64,000 nt of DNA, taken from the sequence record NC_041919.1. One strand, 5' to 3'. The notes beneath the pieces are model-generated. The model was given only the letters and a program-made list of their open reading frames with translations, was not told the origin of the DNA and ran no database searches. Position 1 is the first letter of the stretch, and the number at the start of each line of letters is the position of its first letter. The stretch comes from Escherichia phage HP3. A program made the translations under genes and the position numbers. Of the stretch, positions 55 through 11,792 are shown piece by piece.

Positions 55-1068
55 ATGATGAAAACAGTAATGAAAAGCTATTTTGGTAGTCATCTTTATG
101 GAACTTCTACCCCAGAATCTGATGTAGATTTTAAAGAAATCTTTGTTCCTCCTGCTCGTGATATTCTTATCGGAAATGTTAAAGAGCACATGAGTAAAAA
201 CACTAACAACACATCATCTAAAAACACTAAAGATGATATTGACCATGAACTATACAGTCTTAAATATTTCTTTAAATTAGCAGCAGATGGTGAAACTGTA
301 GCGTTAGATATGCTTCACACTCCACCTGAACTAGTGGTTAAATCTGATTTGCCTGATGTGTGGAAGTTTATTCAAGACAACCGTTCTCGTTTTTATACGA
401 CTAACATGAAATCCTATTTAGGATATGTCCGTAAGCAAGCTTCTAAATACGGCGTTAAGGGTTCTCGTTTGGCTGCATTACGTGATGTATTGAAAGTAGT
501 TAATCAAATCCCTGAGCAATGGGTTGATTACCAAGAAGATGGTTCTATTAAGCAGCGTCGTACTAAAGTTGAAGATATTAAGCATCGTCTTCCAGAAAAC
601 GAATTCTGTGAATGGGTGTTCCATAATCATGAGAAAACAGGCCCACAGACGTTCTACACAGTGTTGGGTCGTAAATATCAGACAACGCTTTCTCTTATTG
701 AGCTTAAGCAGTCACTGAACAAATTAGATGCTGAATACGGTGAACGTGCTCGTAAGGCCGAAGCCAATGAAGGTATTGACTGGAAAGCTATGAGTCATGC
801 TTGCCGTGGTGGACTCCAACTATTGGAAATTTACAAAACTGGTGACTTGGTTTATCCACTCCAAGATGCTCCATTTATTCTCGACGTGAAGTTGGGTAAA
901 CATCCATTTAAAACGGTTCAAGAGTTTTTGGAAGATGTGGTCGATCAAGTAGAAGCAGCATCTACTGAAGCTTCTAAGAACGGTATGCAGCAAAAAGTAG
1001 ACATGGGTTTTTGGGATGACTTCCTTGAGAGGGTTTATCTTGAAAACCACCGAAGTTATTATAAATGA
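55..1068 (+). CDS. hypothetical protein, nucleotidyltransferase-fold candidate
   Basis: 337-aa ORF; N-terminal GSHLYGTSTPESDVD resembles the G[SG]..D.D minimal nucleotidyltransferase motif; AAGG RBS 6-9 nt upstream; hairpin terminator after stop. Confidence 0.6.
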   Translation: MMKTVMKSYFGSHLYGTSTPESDVDFKEIFVPPARDILIGNVKEHMSKNTNNTSSKNTKDDIDHELYSLKYFFKLAADGETVALDMLHTPPELVVKSDLPDVWKFIQDNRSRFYTTNMKSYLGYVRKQASKYGVKGSRLAALRDVLKVVNQIPEQWVDYQEDGSIKQRRTKVEDIKHRLPENEFCEWVFHNHEKTGPQTFYTVLGRKYQTTLSLIELKQSLNKLDAEYGERARKAEANEGIDWKAMSHACRGGLQLLEIYKTGDLVYPLQDAPFILDVKLGKHPFKTVQEFLEDVVDQVEAASTEASKNGMQQKVDMGFWDDFLERVYLENHRSYYK

Positions 1069-2152: not shown

Positions 2153-2253
2153 TTCATAAGAGGCCTTCTATGACAAAAAGGCAGTTCAGAAATAGATTAT
2201 ATGGACTGCCATCAAAAAGATGATTAGAATTAAACTGGTAAATGGAGGTAGTG

Positions 2254-2556
2254 ATGTTATACTCAAAGGCTCGTGAAATTTACGAAACTAAAATTAAAGA
2301 CGCGGTTCATCAGTTCGCAACGACAATGCGTTGGACAAATGACTGGGAATACTCCAAGAATCATAAGAAGCCCTTGGTGACAAGAAAGGCTCATATGTTA
2401 GTGTTAATAGACCGTGAGCAGATTAAAGCCCGAGAAGCCCTCCAGAATCATAAAAAGGCTGCCTTTGAATGGTTTATGGATAACACTGCTCCTGAGACTA
2501 AGAAAGCGGTAAGCGCATGGTTCAGTGGAAAAAATTGTGAAAGAAGTTTCTTTTAG
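2254..2556 (+). CDS. hypothetical protein (100 aa)
   Basis: second ATG of track ORF 2242, preceded by GGAGGT RBS. Confidence 0.5.
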   Translation: MLYSKAREIYETKIKDAVHQFATTMRWTNDWEYSKNHKKPLVTRKAHMLVLIDREQIKAREALQNHKKAAFEWFMDNTAPETKKAVSAWFSGKNCERSFF

Positions 2557-2616: not shown

Positions 2617-3144
2617 ATGAACGCTAAAGATATTTTCAACCTGGTAAATTACAACGATGGTAAATTTAAATCTGAAGCACAAAGCAAGTTCTTTAATGAC
2701 ATCTCAATCGGAGGTGAAATCACGGTTGACGGAGGACAAATTTACAAATCTCGTTGGAATTGGATCGTTATTATCGATGAGATTGGTATTGTAGAAATTT
2801 ACAAGAATACGAATAAAAATCGTACATTACACTGGTCTCGTGATACTAACGAACAGTACAAAAAGGATAAAGCATCTAAATTATCTCGTGTAACTCAAGA
2901 AGATATTGAGTTCATCAAGAAAGATATTTTGATGTATGATAACTTAATTGCTGAAGAGCAAGCTGTTATTGATAAATTTGATGAGATTAAAGCTTCTCGT
3001 GAAATTCCTGATTTTATGAAAGAATCAGTAAATGAACGATACACTCTCATTTCAGAGCGTATTGAAACTTACAAAAAGCAAAGAGCTGAACGCCAAAATA
3101 CTCTTCGGAAGTTTGAAGAACGGTTAAAGACGGTACTCGCATAA
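2617..3144 (+). CDS. hypothetical protein (175 aa)
   Basis: ORF with GGAGGAAC RBS upstream. Confidence 0.6.
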   Translation: MNAKDIFNLVNYNDGKFKSEAQSKFFNDISIGGEITVDGGQIYKSRWNWIVIIDEIGIVEIYKNTNKNRTLHWSRDTNEQYKKDKASKLSRVTQEDIEFIKKDILMYDNLIAEEQAVIDKFDEIKASREIPDFMKESVNERYTLISERIETYKKQRAERQNTLRKFEERLKTVLA

Positions 3145-3199: not shown

Positions 3200-3607
3200 A
3201 TGAAACAGTTGATAATTAAAAGATTGAATTTATTGATATGTTGTTTATGTGTAGTAGTTGCATATGGTTATTACGCAATTAATGATTATATGCATTATAA
3301 AGATTATGATGTTACTGTAGTTAATACCTTTACAGGAACTCAAGGAAAGGGGTCTAGTTTATCGTTTATTGCTGTATATGAACTCAAAGACGGTTATAGA
3401 TTTAGCGAATATATTTCACCAGAGATGTATTCATCAATAGAAAAAGGCGATAATATTACTGTAAGTTTACGTCCTTTCGACGTAAAACAGACATTGTTTG
3501 ATAATATTGTTTGGTTCTTTGGAATGGTATTAGTTCAATCTGTGTGTGGTGCTTATATAGTCTGTTCCATCTTATTCTGTATATTTAGTAAAATTGAAAT
3601 TGAGTGA
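3200..3607 (+). CDS. hypothetical membrane protein (135 aa)
   Basis: ORF with hydrophobic N- and C-terminal segments. Confidence 0.5.
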   Translation: MKQLIIKRLNLLICCLCVVVAYGYYAINDYMHYKDYDVTVVNTFTGTQGKGSSLSFIAVYELKDGYRFSEYISPEMYSSIEKGDNITVSLRPFDVKQTLFDNIVWFFGMVLVQSVCGAYIVCSILFCIFSKIEIE

Positions 3608-3614
3608 GGAAAAT

Positions 3615-4502
3615 ATGTCAGTAGTAATTAATAATGTCAATGCAGTAATTAAATCTTTAGTTAATAAAAAATTGAATGAATGGACTGTACTTCGTCGTGG
3701 AGAGCCAGATAAATTTTTTCATAGATTTAACCCAACTTTGGATTTGAATGTTATTGACAGAGATGTTCATGCTGAAATTTTAGATAAATTTAAAGTTGAT
3801 ATTGGGTTTGGATTAGATAAACATTTACAACGAACAAACGGGTCTGGAATGGGTTTATCTAATCGCATCATGAAAGCCCTTAATAAAATTGGAGCGTTGT
3901 CTCGTATTAATGCGAGTGAAATCCTTCGCAATTATAATAAAGGATATGACCTTTATGGTCGATTAATGCCGAAATTATCATTTGACCAAATGATCGCAGA
4001 TTTGTGGGAAAATCAACGACGATTATTAGCATTAGGCGCTCGATTAGCTAAAGGTCTAGATAAACAAATGATTTTTAAGACCAATAATACAGAAGACCTT
4101 AAATGCTTTAAATTTAGTATTCGTGGCGATGATTATTATATCAGAGCTCACTCTACAGATTATGTTAATATGGGGCATCATCTCTGTTTAGCTTTTGAAG
4201 TTTTAAAAGAAGCCGGAACATTAGAATATTCATCTGGTGCAAAATGCCCTATTGGTTCAAGTTGTATTTTAATTTATCGCCCGGATGAATCCAGTTCAAC
4301 TAAATTGCCTACAAAACCTGTACCAGTTCGTAGTAATGAAAAACATTCTGAGCAAATTGATTATTTTAATAAGCAAATTGAAGAGCTGAATATTTCTATT
4401 CAACAATATGATGATGAAATTTTCAGACTATCTGGACTGAGTAGTAAAGCTAAATCTGAGCGTGAAAAGTTAATTAAAATTATCGATTTACTTAAATCTT
4501 AA
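3615..4502 (+). CDS. hypothetical protein, coiled-coil C-terminus (paralog family member)
   Basis: ATG 3615 after GAGGAAAATATG; track ORF 3594 starts at an upstream TTG. Confidence 0.6.
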   Translation: MSVVINNVNAVIKSLVNKKLNEWTVLRRGEPDKFFHRFNPTLDLNVIDRDVHAEILDKFKVDIGFGLDKHLQRTNGSGMGLSNRIMKALNKIGALSRINASEILRNYNKGYDLYGRLMPKLSFDQMIADLWENQRRLLALGARLAKGLDKQMIFKTNNTEDLKCFKFSIRGDDYYIRAHSTDYVNMGHHLCLAFEVLKEAGTLEYSSGAKCPIGSSCILIYRPDESSSTKLPTKPVPVRSNEKHSEQIDYFNKQIEELNISIQQYDDEIFRLSGLSSKAKSEREKLIKIIDLLKS

Positions 4503-4510
4503 GGAACACC

Positions 4511-5533
4511 ATGAAAACTCGTTCTCAAATTGAAGATATGGTTCGTAATGCCAGCTATACTCGTGATGCTATGACATTTTTGTGCGAAAATAATTTAGAC
4601 CTTGGTAAAGTTAATTGTTCCATTCACGCCTTTAAACATCTGAACAGCAGTGAATGGGTGCGTAATTTTAATGAAGCTGGGTATATTACTCAAATGACTG
4701 CTCGTGAACAGCTCACCGATTTCTGTAAAACTATTGATTATAAAAATCCTCTATTTGTTCAAGGTGTTGGTCAGAGTAAGGTCGATTTATCATCTGGATT
4801 TTTCAATCCAAATCATTATCGTATTGAATGGAGATTTATTGCTCTATTCCGTAAACAATTAAAGCAAATTTTGTCTACTGCTAGTCGATTAAAAGGTTCT
4901 GATATTAACTTAAAGAATCTGAAATTTGATGGTTATACTCTTCAGATGGAAGTAAGACCATTAAAAGAAAATAACAGAACTGCACGAATTAGCTTTAAAC
5001 CTAATACAAAAAATTCTCTTTCAATTTGTGAATGCCTTAAATCACAGTTGACAGAAGCATTTAAGTATATGGATGTAGTTGCCGCGGTTCAGTCTAAGAT
5101 TTTACCTCATTTTGAGCGAAATTGGGAACATACAACAACGTATGAACTTGATATGATCGTTTCATTTAAATACGATTTTTTGAGAAAGGACGAAGTCCCG
5201 CAAGAGAAAAAGCAGGAAGTGCAAGATATCTTAAATTTATCCAATTACTCATCAAACGATCCTAAATTTTGGATGTATAGTTCAGGTAATAAAGATACAT
5301 GGAAATTCAATAAAGTGAATTTTCTTCCTGTTGAAAATCCGAGTCTTAAACCTGTTGAAAAATGGCACGCGGATGCGATTGAGAAGTCTATCAAGGCAGT
5401 AGATGATGAACTCGTTAAAGCAACTAATGAAGTGTTAGAAGCTGAAAAGATGCTAGAAAAAGCTCAAGAAAAAGTCAAAAATCTTACGAAGCAACGTTCT
5501 AAACTGAACAACGCACTAAATGCACTAAACTAG
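4511..5533 (+). CDS. hypothetical protein, paralog family (340 aa)
   Basis: shares WRFIALFRKQLKQILSTASRL-type motif with the next ORF; coiled-coil C-terminus. Confidence 0.6.
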   Translation: MKTRSQIEDMVRNASYTRDAMTFLCENNLDLGKVNCSIHAFKHLNSSEWVRNFNEAGYITQMTAREQLTDFCKTIDYKNPLFVQGVGQSKVDLSSGFFNPNHYRIEWRFIALFRKQLKQILSTASRLKGSDINLKNLKFDGYTLQMEVRPLKENNRTARISFKPNTKNSLSICECLKSQLTEAFKYMDVVAAVQSKILPHFERNWEHTTTYELDMIVSFKYDFLRKDEVPQEKKQEVQDILNLSNYSSNDPKFWMYSSGNKDTWKFNKVNFLPVENPSLKPVEKWHADAIEKSIKAVDDELVKATNEVLEAEKMLEKAQEKVKNLTKQRSKLNNALNALN

Positions 5534-5562
5534 TTTACTTTGCCACAAGGATGTGGTATAAT
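5533..5562 (+). promoter_or_regulatory. T4-type early promoter
   Basis: GTTTAC 5533-5538, TATAAT 5557-5562; CCACA..TGTGG inverted repeat in spacer; near-identical to promoter at 51770. Confidence 0.65.
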
Positions 5563-5590
5563 GTTCTTACTTTCTACTGAGGAGATTAAT

Positions 5591-6592
5591 ATGACTCGTA
5601 ACGAATATATCAAATCATTCAATAGCGTTATTGATGATAAAGTTAAACCTGTGTTTAGTCAGAATAGTGTTATTTCCATTATCAATCAATGGCTCAATAA
5701 TATTGATGCAAGTATTGTTTCTTCAAGCAAATTTATTCATGAAGTTCATAAAATTTCTAGTCGCGAATATAAAGATGATATTAAGGAAACTTTTAAAGGT
5801 TCTCGTCTTCTTTCATATTTAGTTAATCAAGATATTCTTGGTAAATTTGGGAAAGAAATTAAACGAACTAAAGATGTAGTAGGATACAGTTGGTTCGGTG
5901 ATGTTAATTCTTATCATCTTAATAATAAAGAAGACCCTGAGAATATTTTTACTCGTCGTTGGATTAGTAATTTTAGACTTTTCAAGAAGCAAATTCTAAA
6001 ATCAGCTTCTAAATTATGCTATGGTGATTATCGTCAAATCCATCCTTGGGCTTCTGATATGATTATCATAAAAGAATATGAGCTTGATAAAAATAAAGCA
6101 GCTATTTTTGTGAATTATGAATTTTTTACACCAGAAGCTAATCAAAAGAACATTAATAAATTTTTCTCAATTGCTAGCGATATAACTCGTCAGTTAGAGA
6201 CCGCATTACTTTGTATGGAAACAGTAGAAAATATTCATACTTATCCTTTTAAGAATATATGCGGTTGGGAAGGATATAAAATTGTAGTTAGTCTCCGTGA
6301 AGTAAAGTGTGCGTACTCACCGACTGATAAAGAAATTTACCAACAAAAATGTGATGAAATTGTGAATACTCCTAAAGAAGAAACTACCCTTGAGGAACTA
6401 ATGGAATGTCTTGACGATTCGCCTGAACCAGTAGAAATTCGTCCAGAAGTTATTGCACTAGAAAAAGCTTATAAAGAAGTTCTAGAAATTTCTAATAAAG
6501 CGCAGAAAGAATATGAGCAGGCTAAAAAGATTTGGGAAGAATCCGTTAATCGTCTTGATCGTCTTGAACAAGCTTTACAGTTAATTAAGTAA
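5591..6592 (+). CDS. hypothetical protein, paralog family (333 aa)
   Basis: ATG 5591 after GAGGAGATTAAT; track ORF 5540 start lies inside the promoter. Confidence 0.6.
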   Translation: MTRNEYIKSFNSVIDDKVKPVFSQNSVISIINQWLNNIDASIVSSSKFIHEVHKISSREYKDDIKETFKGSRLLSYLVNQDILGKFGKEIKRTKDVVGYSWFGDVNSYHLNNKEDPENIFTRRWISNFRLFKKQILKSASKLCYGDYRQIHPWASDMIIIKEYELDKNKAAIFVNYEFFTPEANQKNINKFFSIASDITRQLETALLCMETVENIHTYPFKNICGWEGYKIVVSLREVKCAYSPTDKEIYQQKCDEIVNTPKEETTLEELMECLDDSPEPVEIRPEVIALEKAYKEVLEISNKAQKEYEQAKKIWEESVNRLDRLEQALQLIK

Positions 6593-6644
6593 TTTAAAGC
6601 CAAGGATGGCTCGGAGTATAAACCATTAACCAAGTGAGAAGAAT

Positions 6645-7574
6645 ATGAAAACTCGTAAACATTATATTGATTATTTTGACAGTCTTATTACTAAACACCG
6701 TAATTATCAGATCGGGCACAGAGCAGTAATCAATAATATTCTTCGTGATTTCCTTCAATATGTTGGTCAGGAAAATCATATCTGTAAAGATACTCAAAAC
6801 GCTTATTCTCATTCGTTAGGCAATTTGCTTGAATGGTTTAAACGTTCTCGTATGTTATCTTCTACTGTAGCTCATGAGAACATTAAAAACTTTATGAAGC
6901 CGAGCTTCATTAAATCTGAGACATCTATAACCGATTTGGTTGAATTTACTATTGTTAATGATGTTAAAAAGACTCATTTGGCTGATTGGTTTTCTACCAT
7001 TCCTGAAACTAAATTTGCTGATAAATTTGCTTGTCAATTCAATGACCAAGTGAATATGCTTTTTAAGCATGCTCGCAAACTATTTACCGCGGGCGATGAC
7101 CGTACAAATACAGTTCATGTTAAGGACTGGGTTATTGCTGATGAAGTAACACACAAGCCAGGTGGTTCATCAGTATTAATTAATATCCAGGTTCCTTATT
7201 ATTACTCACGTAATCTTGGCACCATGACAGCTAAAGAAATTAATAAGCACAACAAAACTATTCGTTCGTTGTCTTATAAACTCCGCATGATGTTAAAAAT
7301 TATGGACGTAGTGGAAATGTATGACGAAACCGAAGATAATGGTTCAATGTTATACAGTTCACGCATTCTAATTAAACTGAAGAACCCTAATACATATAAG
7401 ACAGTTGTAAAAGAGCCTAAAGTAGAAAAGGTTGATAATCTGAGTGAAGAACGTGAATATCTCAATGCCCGTTTGATTGAAGTTGAAGCCCAAATTGCAG
7501 AACACACCAAATTGTTAAAAGCTCTTAATGCAAAAGCAAATGGTTTACGTAATGCTATTGAGGTATTGAAATGA
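6645..7574 (+). CDS. hypothetical protein, coiled-coil C-terminus (309 aa)
   Basis: ORF, similar architecture to the three upstream ORFs. Confidence 0.6.
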   Translation: MKTRKHYIDYFDSLITKHRNYQIGHRAVINNILRDFLQYVGQENHICKDTQNAYSHSLGNLLEWFKRSRMLSSTVAHENIKNFMKPSFIKSETSITDLVEFTIVNDVKKTHLADWFSTIPETKFADKFACQFNDQVNMLFKHARKLFTAGDDRTNTVHVKDWVIADEVTHKPGGSSVLINIQVPYYYSRNLGTMTAKEINKHNKTIRSLSYKLRMMLKIMDVVEMYDETEDNGSMLYSSRILIKLKNPNTYKTVVKEPKVEKVDNLSEEREYLNARLIEVEAQIAEHTKLLKALNAKANGLRNAIEVLK

Positions 7575-7960
7575 AAAAGCGTTTATTAGAAGACATTGCA
7601 GCTTCAAGTAATTCCAGTTTAATTAAAATTATTATGGCTGGTGAGGAAGATGATATGGAAATGCGTGGAAAGATTCACGGCTGCGACGATTTAGATTTTA
7701 AACCTCCAGCATGGGATGCTATTATGGCTATGGTTGAACGACGTGAAAGAGCTTCTAAAAACGTTCCTAATTGCCCTGAATGCGGTACTGAACAAGTTCA
7801 GTTGATTAACTGGCGTAAACCAGAGCTTGAATATAAATGCCGTCAATGTAAACATAAATTCAGTAAGCATGCTCCGGAAATGGTTAAATTGCCTGACTCT
7901 ACTGAGTTCTTTAAAGAACTTGTGAGTGTTCAACCAATGCCTAATAATATTTTGGATTAA
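7571..7960 (+). CDS. hypothetical zinc-ribbon protein (129 aa)
   Basis: CPECG...CRQCKH Cys pairs; ATGA overlap with upstream stop. Confidence 0.55.
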
Positions 7961-7962
7961 AA

Positions 7963-8205
7963 ATGACCAAGCGTAAAGAATATATGGAGGCTGCTGAAAA
8001 GGCAGTCCGTGAATTAGCAATAGCTTATTATAATGAACACGGTAAATTTCCTGATAGATACAGCGTGCTTAAATCTGCTTTAACTCGTTCATATAAAAAT
8101 ATGCTATCAGAAGTAAGTGATATTATATACAAACATAAAGAACAAACGGGCCAAAGTCTTGATTACGACGAGACTTTTAAACAAGTACTAGGAATTAAGG
8201 AATAA
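7963..8205 (+). CDS. hypothetical protein (80 aa)
   Basis: ORF tightly packed between neighbours. Confidence 0.5.
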
Positions 8206-8206
8206 T

Positions 8207-8470
8207 ATGTTTAAAGTATATGGTTATGATAGCAACATTCATAAATGCGTGTATTGCGATAATGCAAAACGTCTTTTGACTGTGAAGAAACAGCCGTTTG
8301 AATTTATCAACATTATGCCGGAAAAAGGTGTTTTTGATGATGAGAAAATCGCTGAGCTTCTGACTAAACTAGGTCGTGATACTCAAATCGGCTTGACAAT
8401 GCCTCAGGTATTTGCTCCTGATGGAAGTCATATTGGTGGATTTGACCAACTGCGAGAATATTTTAAATGA
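8207..8470 (+). CDS. nrdC: phage thioredoxin/glutaredoxin NrdC
   Basis: 87 aa, MFKVYGYDSNIHKCVYCDNAKRLL with CxxC; matches remembered T4 NrdC sequence and length. Confidence 0.9.
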   Translation: MFKVYGYDSNIHKCVYCDNAKRLLTVKKQPFEFINIMPEKGVFDDEKIAELLTKLGRDTQIGLTMPQVFAPDGSHIGGFDQLREYFK

Positions 8471-8682
8471 TGCTCGAAGGAACTGACTATATTCATGATT
8501 ACCGCGGAAGCGCGGTATATGTAGGTGATGAAGTTGCAGTTTATTATGGGTATGGAACTTTGATGACAGCCAAGGTTATTCAAATTAAAAATAATCGTGC
8601 TAAACTCGAAGTTTATTATTCTAATGGCGAAAAGTCTATTTCTAAGTGGAAATACGGCGATTGCATGGTCAAACTGGGGTAA
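8467..8682 (+). CDS. hypothetical protein (71 aa)
   Basis: ORF with ATGA overlap with nrdC stop. Confidence 0.5.
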   Translation: MMLEGTDYIHDYRGSAVYVGDEVAVYYGYGTLMTAKVIQIKNNRAKLEVYYSNGEKSISKWKYGDCMVKLG

Positions 8683-8684
8683 AT

Positions 8685-8855
8685 ATGATTTACGATATTA
8701 ATGTATCACGAGCTCCGTCAATGGTTACTATTCCAGCCGAAGAACTAGATCGTCTTCAGAAAATTGAAGAACTTCTTTGGGAAATTGAATGTGACCTGCC
8801 ATCAGGACTAGAATCTTGGATTGATTATGAAGAACTTAATAAGCTTCGGGGTTAA
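8685..8855 (+). CDS. hypothetical protein (56 aa)
   Basis: ATG 8685 (internal Met of track ORF 8646) after GGGGTAAAT. Confidence 0.4.
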   Translation: MIYDINVSRAPSMVTIPAEELDRLQKIEELLWEIECDLPSGLESWIDYEELNKLRG

Positions 8856-8977
8856 ACCTTGGTGGGCGGCTAGATGGGAAACTGTAGAGCCAGAGCCGGA
8901 AGAACCGGTTTACACTGATGAAGAAACAATATATAATGAACCAACGATAAATGACTTAATTGATATGGAGATGGGAC

Positions 8978-9463
8978 ATGATTACAGTAGATAAGTGGTT
9001 TAGAATTAATCGTGCTGATACAGGGCTGTGTAATTACTGGCCGGAACTTAGTGCAGGTACTGTCTTTAAAGTTCGTGAACTTGCAAAAGAATGTGAAGAT
9101 GATATAGAGCCTGATACTGGAATTATTGAAATTGAACTTTCCGACGGAAAGATTATTAACATCTACGATAAGCCAATTACGTATTGGTGCTTGTGGAATA
9201 CTGAATCCATTGAAAATGGCGAAATTGAAGAAGTTGTAGAGCGAACTAATCAAGTTGTTCAGAAGCCTAAAGCCGATTTTCAAGGTGAACGTATTTCATA
9301 CGCATTAGCTAAATTAGCTGCACAAGAAAATAACGATGGCTATGAAGGAAATTTGATGCAAGCTGCGGCAGAATATATTGAATGGCTTGAAACCCAAATT
9401 TCTTTTTCTGACCAAAAGATTCGGCAATATAAGCGATTGAATCAAATGTTTTACAATACTTGA
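8978..9463 (+). CDS. pin: protease-inhibitor Pin-like protein (161 aa)
   Basis: ATG 8978 after GGAG; length and position between nrdC and gene 49 fit T4 pin; identity by synteny only. Confidence 0.5.
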   Translation: MITVDKWFRINRADTGLCNYWPELSAGTVFKVRELAKECEDDIEPDTGIIEIELSDGKIINIYDKPITYWCLWNTESIENGEIEEVVERTNQVVQKPKADFQGERISYALAKLAAQENNDGYEGNLMQAAAEYIEWLETQISFSDQKIRQYKRLNQMFYNT

Positions 9464-9466
9464 AAA

Positions 9467-9504
9467 TAATAAATACCCTTATCTATTTAAGGTAAGGGTT
9501 TATT
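9467..9504 (+). promoter_or_regulatory. hairpin over gene 49 translation-initiation region
   Basis: ACCCTTA (9475-9481) pairs with TAAGGGT (9493-9499), extendable with a bulge; encloses the AAGG RBS just before ATG 9505. Confidence 0.5.
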
Positions 9505-9978
9505 ATGTTATTGACTGGCAAATTATACAAAGAAGAAAAACAGAAATTTTATAATGCACAAAACGGTAAATGCTTAATTTGCCAACGAGAACTAAATCCT
9601 GATGTTCAAGCTAATCACCTTGACCATGATCATGAATTAAATGGACCAAAAGCAGGAAAGGTACGTGGATTGCTTTGTAATCTCTGCAATGCCGCAGAAG
9701 GTCAAATGAAGCATAAATTTAATCGTTCTGGCTTAAAGGGACAAGGTGTTGATTATCTTGAATGGTTAGAAAATTTACTTACTTATTTAAAATCCGATTA
9801 CACCCAAAATAATATTCACCCTAACTTTATTGGAGATAAATCAAAGGAATTTTCTCGTTTAGGAAAAGAGGAAATGATGGCTGAGATGCTTCAAAGAGGA
9901 TTTGAATATAATGAATCTGACACTAAAACACAGTTAATAGCTTCATTTAAGAAGCAGCTTAGAAAGAGTTTAAAATGA
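9505..9978 (+). CDS. 49: endonuclease VII (Holliday-junction resolvase)
   Basis: 157 aa, CLICQ..HLDHDHE..CNLCN zinc/His motifs; size and sequence fit T4 gp49. Confidence 0.85.
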   Translation: MLLTGKLYKEEKQKFYNAQNGKCLICQRELNPDVQANHLDHDHELNGPKAGKVRGLLCNLCNAAEGQMKHKFNRSGLKGQGVDYLEWLENLLTYLKSDYTQNNIHPNFIGDKSKEFSRLGKEEMMAEMLQRGFEYNESDTKTQLIASFKKQLRKSLK

Positions 9979-11792
9979 CAATTGAAAAAGAAATTGAAGG
10001 ATTGATTCATAAAACTAATAAAGACCTTTTGAACGAGAATGCTAATAAAGATTCTCGTGTTTTTCCAACTCAACGGGACCTTATGGCTGGTATTGTGTCT
10101 AAACACATTGCCAAAAATATGGTCCCGTCTTTTATTATGAAAGCGCATGAAAGCGGAATTATTCATTTCCATGATATTGATTATTCCCCTGCTCTTCCAT
10201 TTACTAATTGTTGTTTAGTAGATTTAAAAGGAATGCTTGAGAACGGATTTAAGCTTGGTAATGCGCAGATTGAAACTCCTAAATCAATCGGTGTTGCTAC
10301 TGCAATTATGGCACAAATTACTGCACAGGTTGCTTCCCATCAATATGGCGGAACGACTTTTGCGAATGTAGATAAAGTACTTTCTCCTTATGTTAAACGC
10401 ACATATGCAAAACATATTGAGGATGCAGAAAAATGGCAAATCGCTGATGCGTTGAATTATGCTCAATCTAAAACAGAAAAAGACGTATACGATGCATTCC
10501 AAGCTTATGAATATGAAGTAAATACTCTCTTTAGTTCAAACGGACAAACACCTTTTGTAACAATTACATTTGGTACGGGAACTGACTGGACTGAACGAAT
10601 GATTCAGAAAGCAATTCTGAAAAATCGTATTAAAGGTCTTGGTCGTGATGGGATAACTCCTATTTTCCCTAAGCTTGTTATGTTTGTTGAAGAAGGTGTT
10701 AATCTTTATAAAGACGATCCGAACTATGATATTAAGCAGCTTGCTCTAGAGTGTGCAAGCAAAAGGATGTATCCTGATATTATTTCAGCTAAGAACAATA
10801 AAGCTATCACTGGTTCATCTGTTCCTGTTTCTCCAATGGGTTGCCGTAGTTTCTTGAGCGTATGGAAAGATTCGACTGGTAATGAAATTCTTGATGGACG
10901 TAATAATCTTGGTGTTGTAACACTGAATCTTCCTCGTATTGCGTTGGATTCTTATATTGGAACACAGTTCAATGAACAGAAATTTGTTAAATTATTCAAT
11001 GAGCGAATGGATTTATGTTTTGAAGCTTTGATGTGTAGAATTAGTTCCTTAAAAGGAGTTAAAGCGACTGTTGCTCCTATTCTTTACCAAGAAGGTGCAT
11101 TCGGGGTTCGTCTTAAACCTGATGACGATATAATTGAGTTATTTAAAAATGGTAGAAGTTCAGTGTCTTTAGGATACATTGGTATTCACGAATTGAATAT
11201 TCTTGTCGGTCGTGATATTGGACAGGAAATTTTAACTAAAATGAATGCTCGTCTTAAACAGTGGACTGAAAGAACTGGGTTTGCTTTTAGCTTGTATTCT
11301 ACTCCTGCTGAAAACCTTTGCTATCGCTTCTGTAAACTTGATACAGAAAAATATGGAAGTGTAAAGGATGTTACTGATAAAGGCTGGTACACTAACAGTT
11401 TCCATGTTTCAGTAGAAGAAAATATTACTCCGTTTGAAAAGATTTCTCGCGAAGCCCCGTATCATTTCATTGCAACAGGTGGTCACATTTCTTATGTTGA
11501 ACTTCCTGATATGAAAAATAACTTAAAAGGTCTTGAGGCTGTATGGGATTATGCTGCACAACATTTAGATTATTTTGGTGTTAATATGCCAGTAGATAAA
11601 TGTTTTACGTGTGGAAGTACCCATGAAATGACTCCTACTGAAAACGGGTTTGTTTGTTCTATTTGTGGAGAAACTGATCCTAAAAAGATGAACACAATAA
11701 GAAGAACATGCGGTTATTTGGGAAACCCGAACGAACGCGGATTTAATCTCGGTAAAAATAAAGAAATCATGCATAGGGTTAAACACCAATGA
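9975..11792 (+). CDS. nrdD: anaerobic ribonucleoside-triphosphate reductase NrdD
   Basis: 605 aa, C-terminal glycyl-radical motif RRTCGYLG and Cys cluster CFTCGS..CSICG; uninterrupted frame. Confidence 0.95.
   Translation: MTIEKEIEGLIHKTNKDLLNENANKDSRVFPTQRDLMAGIVSKHIAKNMVPSFIMKAHESGIIHFHDIDYSPALPFTNCCLVDLKGMLENGFKLGNAQIETPKSIGVATAIMAQITAQVASHQYGGTTFANVDKVLSPYVKRTYAKHIEDAEKWQIADALNYAQSKTEKDVYDAFQAYEYEVNTLFSSNGQTPFVTITFGTGTDWTERMIQKAILKNRIKGLGRDGITPIFPKLVMFVEEGVNLYKDDPNYDIKQLALECASKRMYPDIISAKNNKAITGSSVPVSPMGCRSFLSVWKDSTGNEILDGRNNLGVVTLNLPRIALDSYIGTQFNEQKFVKLFNERMDLCFEALMCRISSLKGVKATVAPILYQEGAFGVRLKPDDDIIELFKNGRSSVSLGYIGIHELNILVGRDIGQEILTKMNARLKQWTERTGFAFSLYSTPAENLCYRFCKLDTEKYGSVKDVTDKGWYTNSFHVSVEENITPFEKISREAPYHFIATGGHISYVELPDMKNNLKGLEAVWDYAAQHLDYFGVNMPVDKCFTCGSTHEMTPTENGFVCSICGETDPKKMNTIRRTCGYLGNPNERGFNLGKNKEIMHRVKHQ

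Follow-up and report, generated by a model that had tools for sequence, protein, structure and literature searches.

No lytic phage has been studied better than bacteriophage T4, and still the majority of its accessory genes lack a known function. DSAD1, reportedly a phage inhibitor of DSR2 (Garb and colleagues, 2022, with structural work later), is a phage early protein that neutralizes a SIR2-domain NADase (NAD+, nicotinamide adenine dinucleotide) defence by direct binding; DSAD1 is not known to have a coiled-coil tail. The subject here is a set of four consecutive open reading frames (ORFs) at positions 3615-7574 of a 64,000-nucleotide stretch from Escherichia phage HP3 (NC_041919.1; this full 64-kb stretch is called the window), identified by synteny with T4 and by the annotation of phage HP3.1 as nrdC.6, nrdC.5, nrdC.4 and nrdC.3. 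The likeness of DSAD1 to the mechanism proposed for them is an analogy only, as DSAD1 belongs to a different phage group. The closest described protein is T4 NrdC.5 (UniProt Y05A; PF23882), of which the ORF at 4511-5533 is the orthologue (91% identity, same position) and the other three ORFs are distant paralogs. According to Srikant, Guegler & Laub (eLife 2022, PMC9391042), ECOR17 could not be infected by a T4 clone that had compensatory deletions, and T4 nrdC.5 alone, supplied on a plasmid, restored plaquing of the deletion mutant on Dsr1+ E. coli. The same text calls nrdC.5 an early gene and Dsr1 a SIR2 defence protein thought to act via NAD+ depletion; nrdC.5 is treated there as a lone uncharacterized gene, and no mechanism, structure or paralogs are reported.

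Other T-even anti-defence clusters (the dmd-tifA-adfA "anti-TA island"; gp49.2, directed against OLD) likewise consist of dispensable early genes in variable regions, but they hold unrelated small proteins, whereas the present locus is a tandem array of paralogs of about 300 amino acids (aa) with a predicted shared fold. The gp49.2 gene lies near the nrdC block of phage T6, and its product inhibits the OLD defence (PMC13096335); since this gene stands in the same pin-nrdC block as nrdC.5 in T4 and T6, the block is rich in counter-defence genes. In the window, no ORF of gp49.2 size was found in the corresponding interval (8471-9504).

The four HP3 proteins are, on balance, best read as ancient tandem duplicates within the Straboviridae, early and dispensable accessory proteins that would act as stoichiometric inhibitors of host immune proteins; most likely they form a family of anti-defence proteins built from a binding core, a linker and an oligomerizing coiled coil. 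An original prediction, made from the letters of the sequence, had described four ORFs of a paralog family with coiled-coil C-termini, expanded in tandem under diversifying selection as possible host takeover or anti-defence effectors. The ORFs themselves stand as described, with products of 295, 340, 333 and 309 aa encoded on one strand. The window is a Tequatrovirus; the 4.3 kb around the ORFs is 100% identical to Escherichia phage HP3.1 and 80-99% identical to about 650 further phage records, almost all T4-like (Escherichia, Shigella, Yersinia). The genes, the relationship of NrdC.3 to NrdC.4 and the anti-Dsr1 role of NrdC.5 are already known: PF26897 and phrog_1435 unite NrdC.3 with NrdC.4, and NrdC.5 and NrdC.6 are kept as separate families without an assigned function (PF23882, PF26899, PHROGs 2351 and 2257). 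A link of NrdC.5 to NrdC.3 and NrdC.4, a structural link of NrdC.6, the common core-linker-coiled-coil build and the occurrence of tandem arrays at the nrdC locus across the Straboviridae were not found in the databases and literature searched.

Family assignments were as follows. The ORF at 4511-5533 matched the Pfam model PF23882 over its full length (419.8 bits, E 1e-125; gathering threshold 30 bits), and this model had no match in the nrdC.6, nrdC.4 or nrdC.3 ORFs. Both the ORF at 5591-6592 (E 2e-166) and that at 6645-7574 (E 8e-116) matched phrog_1435 over the full length. PF26897 is precomputed on proteins 99% identical to ORF 5591-6592, so that its membership is by way of relatives, and also on the NrdC.3-derived part of a fusion protein, P0120, described below. 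PF26899 is carried by proteins 96-100% identical to ORF 3615-4502, which itself matched phrog_2257 (E 5e-153).

For profile comparison, orthologue alignments were assembled from 14 related viral contigs, T4 (reference NC_000866, L001), database homologues and an exhaustive search. Plain pairwise blastp linked none of the four proteins except NrdC.3 and NrdC.4 (25% identity over 229 aa, E 3e-5). With hhalign, NrdC.4 aligned to NrdC.3 at 97.6% (P 4e-12; tail-less alignment P 1.8e-12) and NrdC.5 to NrdC.4 at 92.9% (P 3.6e-7), and NrdC.5 aligned to the merged NrdC.4 and NrdC.3 profile at 95.2% (P 2.5e-8). With the C-terminal tails removed the NrdC.5-NrdC.4 alignment retained 90.5% (P 1.4e-6, 155 columns). 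Shallow alignments gave this pair 46% only, the higher score requiring distant orthologues from related loci and the exhaustive search. A NrdC.4 profile run by HMMER against all 252 ORF segments of the window returned NrdC.3 (E 3e-17) and next NrdC.5 (E 0.028) and matched nothing beyond these two; no further paralog was found elsewhere in the window. When 1.84 billion representatives were searched exhaustively by phmmer with NrdC.5 as query, 12 hits resulted, all of them close family members or fragments, with no bridge to the paralogs. Because the tail-less NrdC.5-NrdC.4 alignment is significant, as is that of NrdC.3 with NrdC.4, the similarity is not confined to the tails, a possibility which the original prediction had itself raised. 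NrdC.3, NrdC.4 and NrdC.5 are very probably homologous, as judged from these profile alignments.

The internal motif noticed earlier in the second and third ORFs is real: hhalign paired WRFIALFRKQLKQILSTASRL of NrdC.5 with RRWISNFRLFKKQILKSASKL of NrdC.4, a correspondence which blastp alone gave only at E=2. The counterparts are FACQFNDQVNMLFKHARKLFTAGDD in NrdC.3 and NQRRLLALGARLAKGLDKQ in NrdC.6, and in the predicted structure of NrdC.4 the motif forms two helices (residues 119-130 and 132-142) with predicted local distance difference test (pLDDT) values above 90. Positions conserved across the four families belong mostly to the hydrophobic core, together with one Ser/Thr, two basic residues and one Gly in the motif; NrdC.6 has in addition an invariant polar motif, NQRRLLALGARLA-G-DKQM-FKTN. 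A regular expression for the motif, written post hoc, matched only NrdC.6, NrdC.5 and NrdC.4 in a six-frame translation of the window.

Comparison of copy number across T4-like genomes, a check proposed with the original prediction, showed variation by genus: four copies at the locus in Tequatrovirus, three in Gaprivervirus (VR25), three in Dhakavirus (IME341 and JS10-like contigs) and two in Acinetobacter phage Acj61 (Lasallevirus). The order nrdC.6-nrdC.5-nrdC.4 is kept in three genera. In Gaprivervirus and Dhakavirus nrdC.4 is followed directly by nrdC.2, nrdC.3 being missing, so that nrdC.3 is an additional copy of nrdC.4 type, confined to Tequatrovirus. The two adjacent Acj61 genes, p120 and p121, lie upstream of nrdC and encode the Foldseek matches E5E4A1 and E5E4A2; both proteins have K/E/L-rich helical C-termini, with a significant heptad tail in p120 only, and hhalign of these single sequences against the family profiles detected no relationship, though Foldseek links them. 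In two further regions of Acj61 (L017 11229-13938 and 19028-21322) are found a nicotinamide phosphoribosyltransferase gene beside a ribose-phosphate pyrophosphokinase gene, which looks like an NAD+ reconstitution pathway (NARP), and a second pair annotated as tandem duplicates (p076 and p077).

The paralogs share 11-25% identity. As identity does not exceed 25% and Gaprivervirus and Dhakavirus have three of the four copies, the expansion is ancient and not recent. NrdC.5 diverges fastest (22-28% identity between genera), against 40-52% for NrdC.4 and NrdC.6 and 67-84% for NrdC.8 and NrdC.11, and its family is narrow (of 1.84 billion representatives, 12 belong to it). At least three allele classes of NrdC.3 exist, with identities to the window copy of at least 94%, 74-78% and about 60%. 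Between the window and T4, synonymous divergence (dS) is saturated over nrdC.3 and nrdC.2 (6645-7960; dS ~1.05-1.1; 62% and 76% aa identity) and low in the flanks (dS 0.04-0.23; flanking genes 92-100% identical), which indicates allelic replacement of an nrdC.3-nrdC.2 cassette.

Ratios of nonsynonymous to synonymous divergence (dN/dS), pooled over Tequatrovirus pairs, were 0.13 for NrdC.6, 0.21 for NrdC.5, 0.19 for NrdC.4 and 0.44 for NrdC.3, the last value being inflated by two nrdC.5::nrdC.3 fusion ORFs; neighboring genes, at 0.02-0.13, are under tighter constraint than the four paralogs. Within NrdC.6, NrdC.5 and NrdC.4 the motif region had dN/dS of 0.00-0.04 and the N-terminal helical region 0.19-0.38. 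The diversifying selection suggested in the original prediction thus finds no support, all values lying below 1. Constraint on these genes has loosened, and they vary in a polymorphic, modular way. The weaker constraint, the fast divergence of NrdC.5 and the NrdC.3 allele classes fit an arms race and do not prove one.

The fusion protein P0120 was found on four contigs and is encoded in frame in natural Tequatrovirus genomes (L019:4570-5900 and L020:1931-3261). It joins NrdC.5 residues ~145-269 to NrdC.3 from about residue 136, just before the NrdC.3 motif. In these genomes nrdC.4 is deleted, and a 115-aa ORF lies just upstream, at the expected 5' end of nrdC.5. The nrdC.6-nrdC.3 block is lost or rearranged both in nature and in the laboratory, with viability kept.

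K/E/L-rich, heptad-like tails were confirmed on all four proteins. The residues K, E, L, Q, R and A make up 49-67% of the last 49 residues and 33-38% of the remainder of each protein. When the contrast in hydrophobicity between heptad a/d and other positions in the last 49 residues was compared with 2000 shuffles of the same residues, it was significant for NrdC.6 (p<0.0005), NrdC.5 (p<0.0005), NrdC.4 (p 0.015) and NrdC.3 (p 0.0015) and not significant for five neighboring proteins (p 0.26-0.99). One of these, NrdC.8, was rejected as a further member with a similar tail (heptad p 0.26, no profile similarity). The top-scoring 42-residue heptad window of the whole protein was the C-terminus in all four cases, a/d positions were 71-94% hydrophobic across 7-8 heptads, and each tail ends in L-x-x-A-x-x-(L/V)-L-K. 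In AlphaFold2 (AF2) models the terminal helices follow a disordered linker (NrdC.4 285-332; NrdC.6 242-271 and 277-294). As the tails rank among the best-conserved portions of each orthologue family, they are more than low complexity; that of NrdC.4 is strongly conserved with low dN/dS, and no block in the family alignment is better conserved than its last 13 residues (321-333; mean conservation 0.92). Profile comparison of the tails alone between paralogs was not significant (P 0.001-0.08), so the homology of the family is not carried by them.

Three observations on tails stand apart. In nrdC.6 of the T4 reference one nucleotide is deleted (GCTGAATATT to GCTG-ATATT, at the 3' end corresponding to window ~4390-4502), and the resulting frameshift removes the last ~38 residues and with them most of the coiled-coil tail; another frame still encodes the intact tail. 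A short nrdC.6, of 276-277 aa, also occurs in two metagenomic Tequatrovirus genomes (L019 and L020). In the 173-aa protein P0231 (L018) the ~52 C-terminal residues of the window NrdC.5 recur unchanged, attached to an unrelated N-terminal domain for which the window has no coding sequence; the sole source of P0231 is an 803-bp metagenome contig, possibly chimeric, and the protein was not used as evidence.

Tails of this kind could hold the four proteins together as subunits of one hetero-oligomeric complex with a single function, in place of four effectors acting independently. The identical closing signature on all four tails, the gene order conserved in three genera and the tight packing of the genes on one strand would suit such a complex, but plasmid-borne nrdC.5 alone sufficed on Dsr1+ cells (whether the "evo 3" mutant had the other paralogs is unstated in the available part of PMC9391042), nrdC.3 is missing from Gaprivervirus and Dhakavirus, natural genomes do without nrdC.4 and have the nrdC.5::nrdC.3 fusion, and T4 has lost the nrdC.6 tail through frameshift. 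The non-significant profile comparison of the tails between paralogs also stands against a complex of this sort, which is considered unlikely.

The position of NrdC.6 was judged from structure prediction, run on NrdC.4 (pLDDT 82.5, predicted template-modelling score (pTM) 0.68) and NrdC.6 (pLDDT 77.5, pTM 0.66); the structural comparison rests on these two AF2 models. Both present an identical order of secondary-structure elements over the full length: N-terminal helices, then short strands (NrdC.4 has three, NrdC.6 has bridges of a single residue), the motif helix pair (NrdC.4 119-142, NrdC.6 123-144), a first beta-hairpin, a long helix, another beta-hairpin, the disordered linker and the terminal helix. 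A Foldseek search of BFVD with the NrdC.4 model retrieved NrdC.6 of phage JS10 (E 8e-6, probability 1.00, template-modelling score (TM) 0.43/0.50) and a 308-aa NrdC.3-sized protein of Yersinia phage fPS-65. Five matches of probability 1.00, from T4-like phages of Enterobacter, Pectobacterium, Acinetobacter and Klebsiella, were common to both models. Straboviridae proteins of 300-370 aa (Acj61 p120/p121, Acj9, Mineola, PM2, Cronus, IME523) reached Foldseek probability 1.00 to the NrdC.4 and/or NrdC.6 models at only 9-17% sequence identity. A relaxed hhalign comparison of NrdC.6 with NrdC.4 and NrdC.3 was collinear end to end and paired the motif helices, the long helix, a P-x-P-V linker and the terminal LLK.

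Alternatively, only nrdC.5, nrdC.4 and nrdC.3 would be paralogous, with nrdC.6 an unrelated gene whose product resembles theirs by chance in size, helix-rich composition and coiled-coil end. By sequence NrdC.6 indeed showed no significant similarity to the other paralogs (best profile P 0.015; tail-less P 0.019-0.15; HMMER E above 1), the Foldseek TM values reach only 0.43-0.50, long helices can inflate scores of Foldseek, and a search with the NrdC.6 model gave no direct match to NrdC.3 or NrdC.4 entries. Chance likeness accounts poorly for the agreement in secondary-structure order along the whole length, for the match of probability 1.00 to JS10 NrdC.6 and the five shared matches, and for the register of motif helix, long helix, linker and terminal LLK in the collinear alignment; the post-hoc motif expression, which picks only NrdC.6, NrdC.5 and NrdC.4 in the window, and the adjacent position of the gene on the same strand also speak for kinship. 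An unrelated NrdC.6 is thus held to be rather improbable, and from the predicted models NrdC.6 probably belongs to the family. The paralog family of the original prediction is in this way retained by sequence for three members and through predicted structure for the fourth.

Under the reading of the four as ancient duplicates with anti-defence roles, each protein would consist of an alpha/beta core of ~240 residues (N-terminal helices, a small beta-meander, the conserved helix pair closing in a G-(x)-D turn, and a long helix with a beta-hairpin on either side), joined through a disordered linker of ~20-40 residues to an amphipathic heptad helix of ~50 residues that closes in the shared terminal signature. 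Each paralog may act as a stoichiometric inhibitor of one host immune protein by direct binding, the target of NrdC.5 being the SIR2-type NADase Dsr1 and those of the other three being perhaps other defences or variants. Target specificity would come from the diverged core surface, especially the N-terminal helices, and the coiled-coil tail would form a dimer or higher oligomer, giving avidity or matching an oligomeric target. The build, the homology, the variation in copy number and the pattern of conservation are results of the present analysis, and the anti-Dsr1 activity of T4 NrdC.5 comes from the literature; direct binding, oligomerization through the tail and an anti-defence role of NrdC.3, NrdC.4 and NrdC.6 are what we infer. 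The window nrdC.5 orthologue is assumed, from its 91% identity, to share the anti-Dsr1 activity of T4 NrdC.5, with which the anti-defence role proposed earlier for the whole set agrees; as diverged copies of a gene whose product disarms Dsr1, NrdC.3, NrdC.4 and NrdC.6 are good candidates for phage counter-defence proteins, a known kind of system.

Several results weigh against this reading. No dN/dS above 1 was obtained, gene-wide or by region. The link of NrdC.6 to the family depends on predicted models with TM of about 0.45-0.5, its sequence comparisons being negative as given above. Foldseek against the PDB returned nothing significant (TRAPP Bet3, H-NOX and Rpb11 at E>=0.024, TM<=0.38), and as the fold has no likeness among solved structures, structure offers no guide to mechanism. 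The nrdC.6 tail is dispensable at least in the laboratory, as it is frameshifted off in the T4 reference and in two metagenomic genomes. Functional data in the papers searched concern NrdC.5 only and come from one study, which reports no mechanism or binding data and to which the later papers searched add nothing. Finally, NrdC.6 could use its invariant polar motif for catalysis or for binding a ligand, and not as a scaffold element.

A further possibility is that the family consists of enzymes or small-molecule binders (for example of NAD+, ADP-ribose or nucleotides) that counter NAD+-depleting defences metabolically and do not bind the defence protein. Dsr1 is thought to deplete NAD+ (PMC9391042) and phages are known to counter NAD+ depletion with NARP pathways; the motif region is near-invariant and polar-rich in NrdC.6, with the very low dN/dS noted above in three of the paralogs. 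Searches of Pfam, NCBIfam and PDB sequences, however, matched no enzyme or ligand-binding family and gave noise only (designed helical repeats, Xer recombinase N-termini, a PHL domain), the residues common to the four families are mainly hydrophobic, and four paralogs at 11-25% identity would be unusual for a single metabolic activity. Because the conserved positions are mainly hydrophobic and no enzyme family in Pfam or NCBIfam matches the four proteins, a common scaffold with diverged surfaces is favored over a shared catalytic site, and a metabolic role is judged improbable.

A bolder form of the inhibitor reading is put forward tentatively and is itself doubtful: NrdC.3-NrdC.6 and their Straboviridae relatives might be a hitherto unrecognized superfamily, specific to phages, of immune inhibitors tethered by coiled coils, whose fold has no counterpart among solved structures, each paralog neutralizing a different defence (NrdC.5 against Dsr1 as the first example) and the tails possibly assembling a homo- or hetero-oligomeric, multi-specific anti-defence hub. 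The reading of the four as ancient duplicates with anti-defence roles ties three orphan genes (nrdC.3, nrdC.4 and nrdC.6) to an adjacent anti-defence gene, a concrete hypothesis that is cheap to test, and supplies a domain map (variable core, invariant helix-pair motif, linker, coiled coil) for dissecting the action of NrdC.5 on Dsr1. It also brings into the family proteins of T4-like phages that infect Acinetobacter, Klebsiella, Pectobacterium, Erwinia and Enterobacter. Tequatrovirus phages for therapy, HP3.1 among them, vary in nrdC.3 alleles, nrdC.6 tail frameshifts and nrdC.4 deletions, and this variation may contribute to host-range differences.

Coordinates of the four paralogs, their motifs and tails, and the neighboring features are collected below.

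Table 1. Features of the nrdC.11-nrdD region of the HP3 window (positions are those of the window).
Feature	Position	Strand	Basis
nrdC.11 (nucleotidyltransferase)	55-1068	+	synteny with T4, HP3.1 annotation
nrdC.10	end 2152	+	synteny with T4, HP3.1 annotation
nrdC.9	2242-2556	+	synteny with T4, HP3.1 annotation
nrdC.8	2617-3144	+	synteny with T4, HP3.1 annotation
nrdC.7 (membrane protein)	3200-3607	+	synteny with T4, HP3.1 annotation
nrdC.6 homologue, 295 aa, most diverged member	3615-4502	+	phrog_2257; homologues carry PF26899 (Phage_T4_Y05B)
NrdC.6 helix pair and G-x-D turn, residues 123-150, ...NQRRLLALGARLAKGLDKQ	3981..4064	+	near-invariant in family; dN/dS 0.00
NrdC.6 heptad tail, residues 242-295, two predicted helices	4338..4499	+	heptad test, AF2
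nrdC.5 homologue, 340 aa	4511-5533	+	Pfam DUF7235 PF23882; phrog_2351; 91% identity to T4 NrdC.5
NrdC.5 signature motif, residues 107-133, WRFIALFRKQLKQILSTASRLKGSD	4829..4909	+	hhalign; dN/dS 0.04
NrdC.5 heptad tail, residues ~285-340, 94% a/d hydrophobic over 8 heptads	5363..5530	+	heptad test
Promoter-like site GTTTACT / 17 nt / TGgTATAAT, then GAGGAG	5534..5562	+	consensus match only
nrdC.4 homologue, 333 aa	5591-6592	+	phrog_1435; homologues carry PF26897 (Phage_T4_Y04OP)
NrdC.4 signature helix pair, residues 119-148, ...RRWISNFRLFKKQILKSASKLCYGDYR	5945..6034	+	hhalign, AF2; dN/dS 0.03
NrdC.4 C-terminal helix, residues 285-333	6443..6589	+	heptad test, AF2, conservation
nrdC.3 homologue, 309 aa, polymorphic	6645-7574	+	phrog_1435
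NrdC.3 motif version, residues 127-153, KFACQFNDQVNMLFKHARKLFTAGDDR	7023..7103	+	family alignment
NrdC.3 heptad tail, residues 262-309	7428..7571	+	heptad test
nrdC.2	7571-7960	+	synteny with T4, HP3.1 annotation
nrdC.1	7963-8205	+	synteny with T4, HP3.1 annotation
nrdC, true thioredoxin	8207-8470	+	CVYC present
Gene 49	9505-9978	+	synteny with T4, HP3.1 annotation
nrdD	from 9975	+	synteny with T4, HP3.1 annotation

The promoter-like site sits in the 57-nt gap between nrdC.5 and nrdC.4. A GAGGAG ribosome-binding site precedes the nrdC.4 start at 5591 by 6 nt, and the N-terminus that follows from this start, MTRNEYI, is conserved. The start of nrdC.2 overlaps the nrdC.3 stop codon (ATGA), and its product has a zinc-ribbon-like CPEC...CRQC motif.

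The whole nrdC.1-nrdC.11 block is widely mis-annotated as "thioredoxin" ("thioredoxin, phage-associated") in GenBank records, a label ascribed to the gene names, which record map position only; nrdC.5 bears the label "tail sheath stabilizer and completion protein" in phage T6 (AP018814) and "endonuclease II" in one record. That the four are thioredoxin-like or ribonucleotide-reductase accessory proteins, as these labels and nothing else would have it, is rejected as virtually certain to be wrong, as no thioredoxin or glutaredoxin Pfam match was found in any of them and CxxC is absent from all four, while the true NrdC has CVYC, so that neither the fold signature nor the active-site motif is present.

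Downstream of nrdC the interval before gene 49 (8471-9504) is unlike that of T4, the window holding small ORFs of 71, 69 and 57 aa and pin where T4 holds 49.3, 49.2 and 49.1. The window nrdD (9975-11792, 605 aa) is uninterrupted; T4 nrdD is split by a group I intron carrying I-TevII. Some related contigs (L003 and L010) carry instead a further ORF, of 273 aa, which separates gene 49 from nrdD. At the other end of the block, directly 3' of nrdC.11, positions 1070-1089 form a terminator-like structure, a G+C-rich hairpin with perfect pairing (AGGGAGCC-TTCG-GGCTCCCT) and a run of T after it; as this hairpin lies inside the long ORF 1016-2152, it argues for a shorter nrdC.10 starting near 1184.

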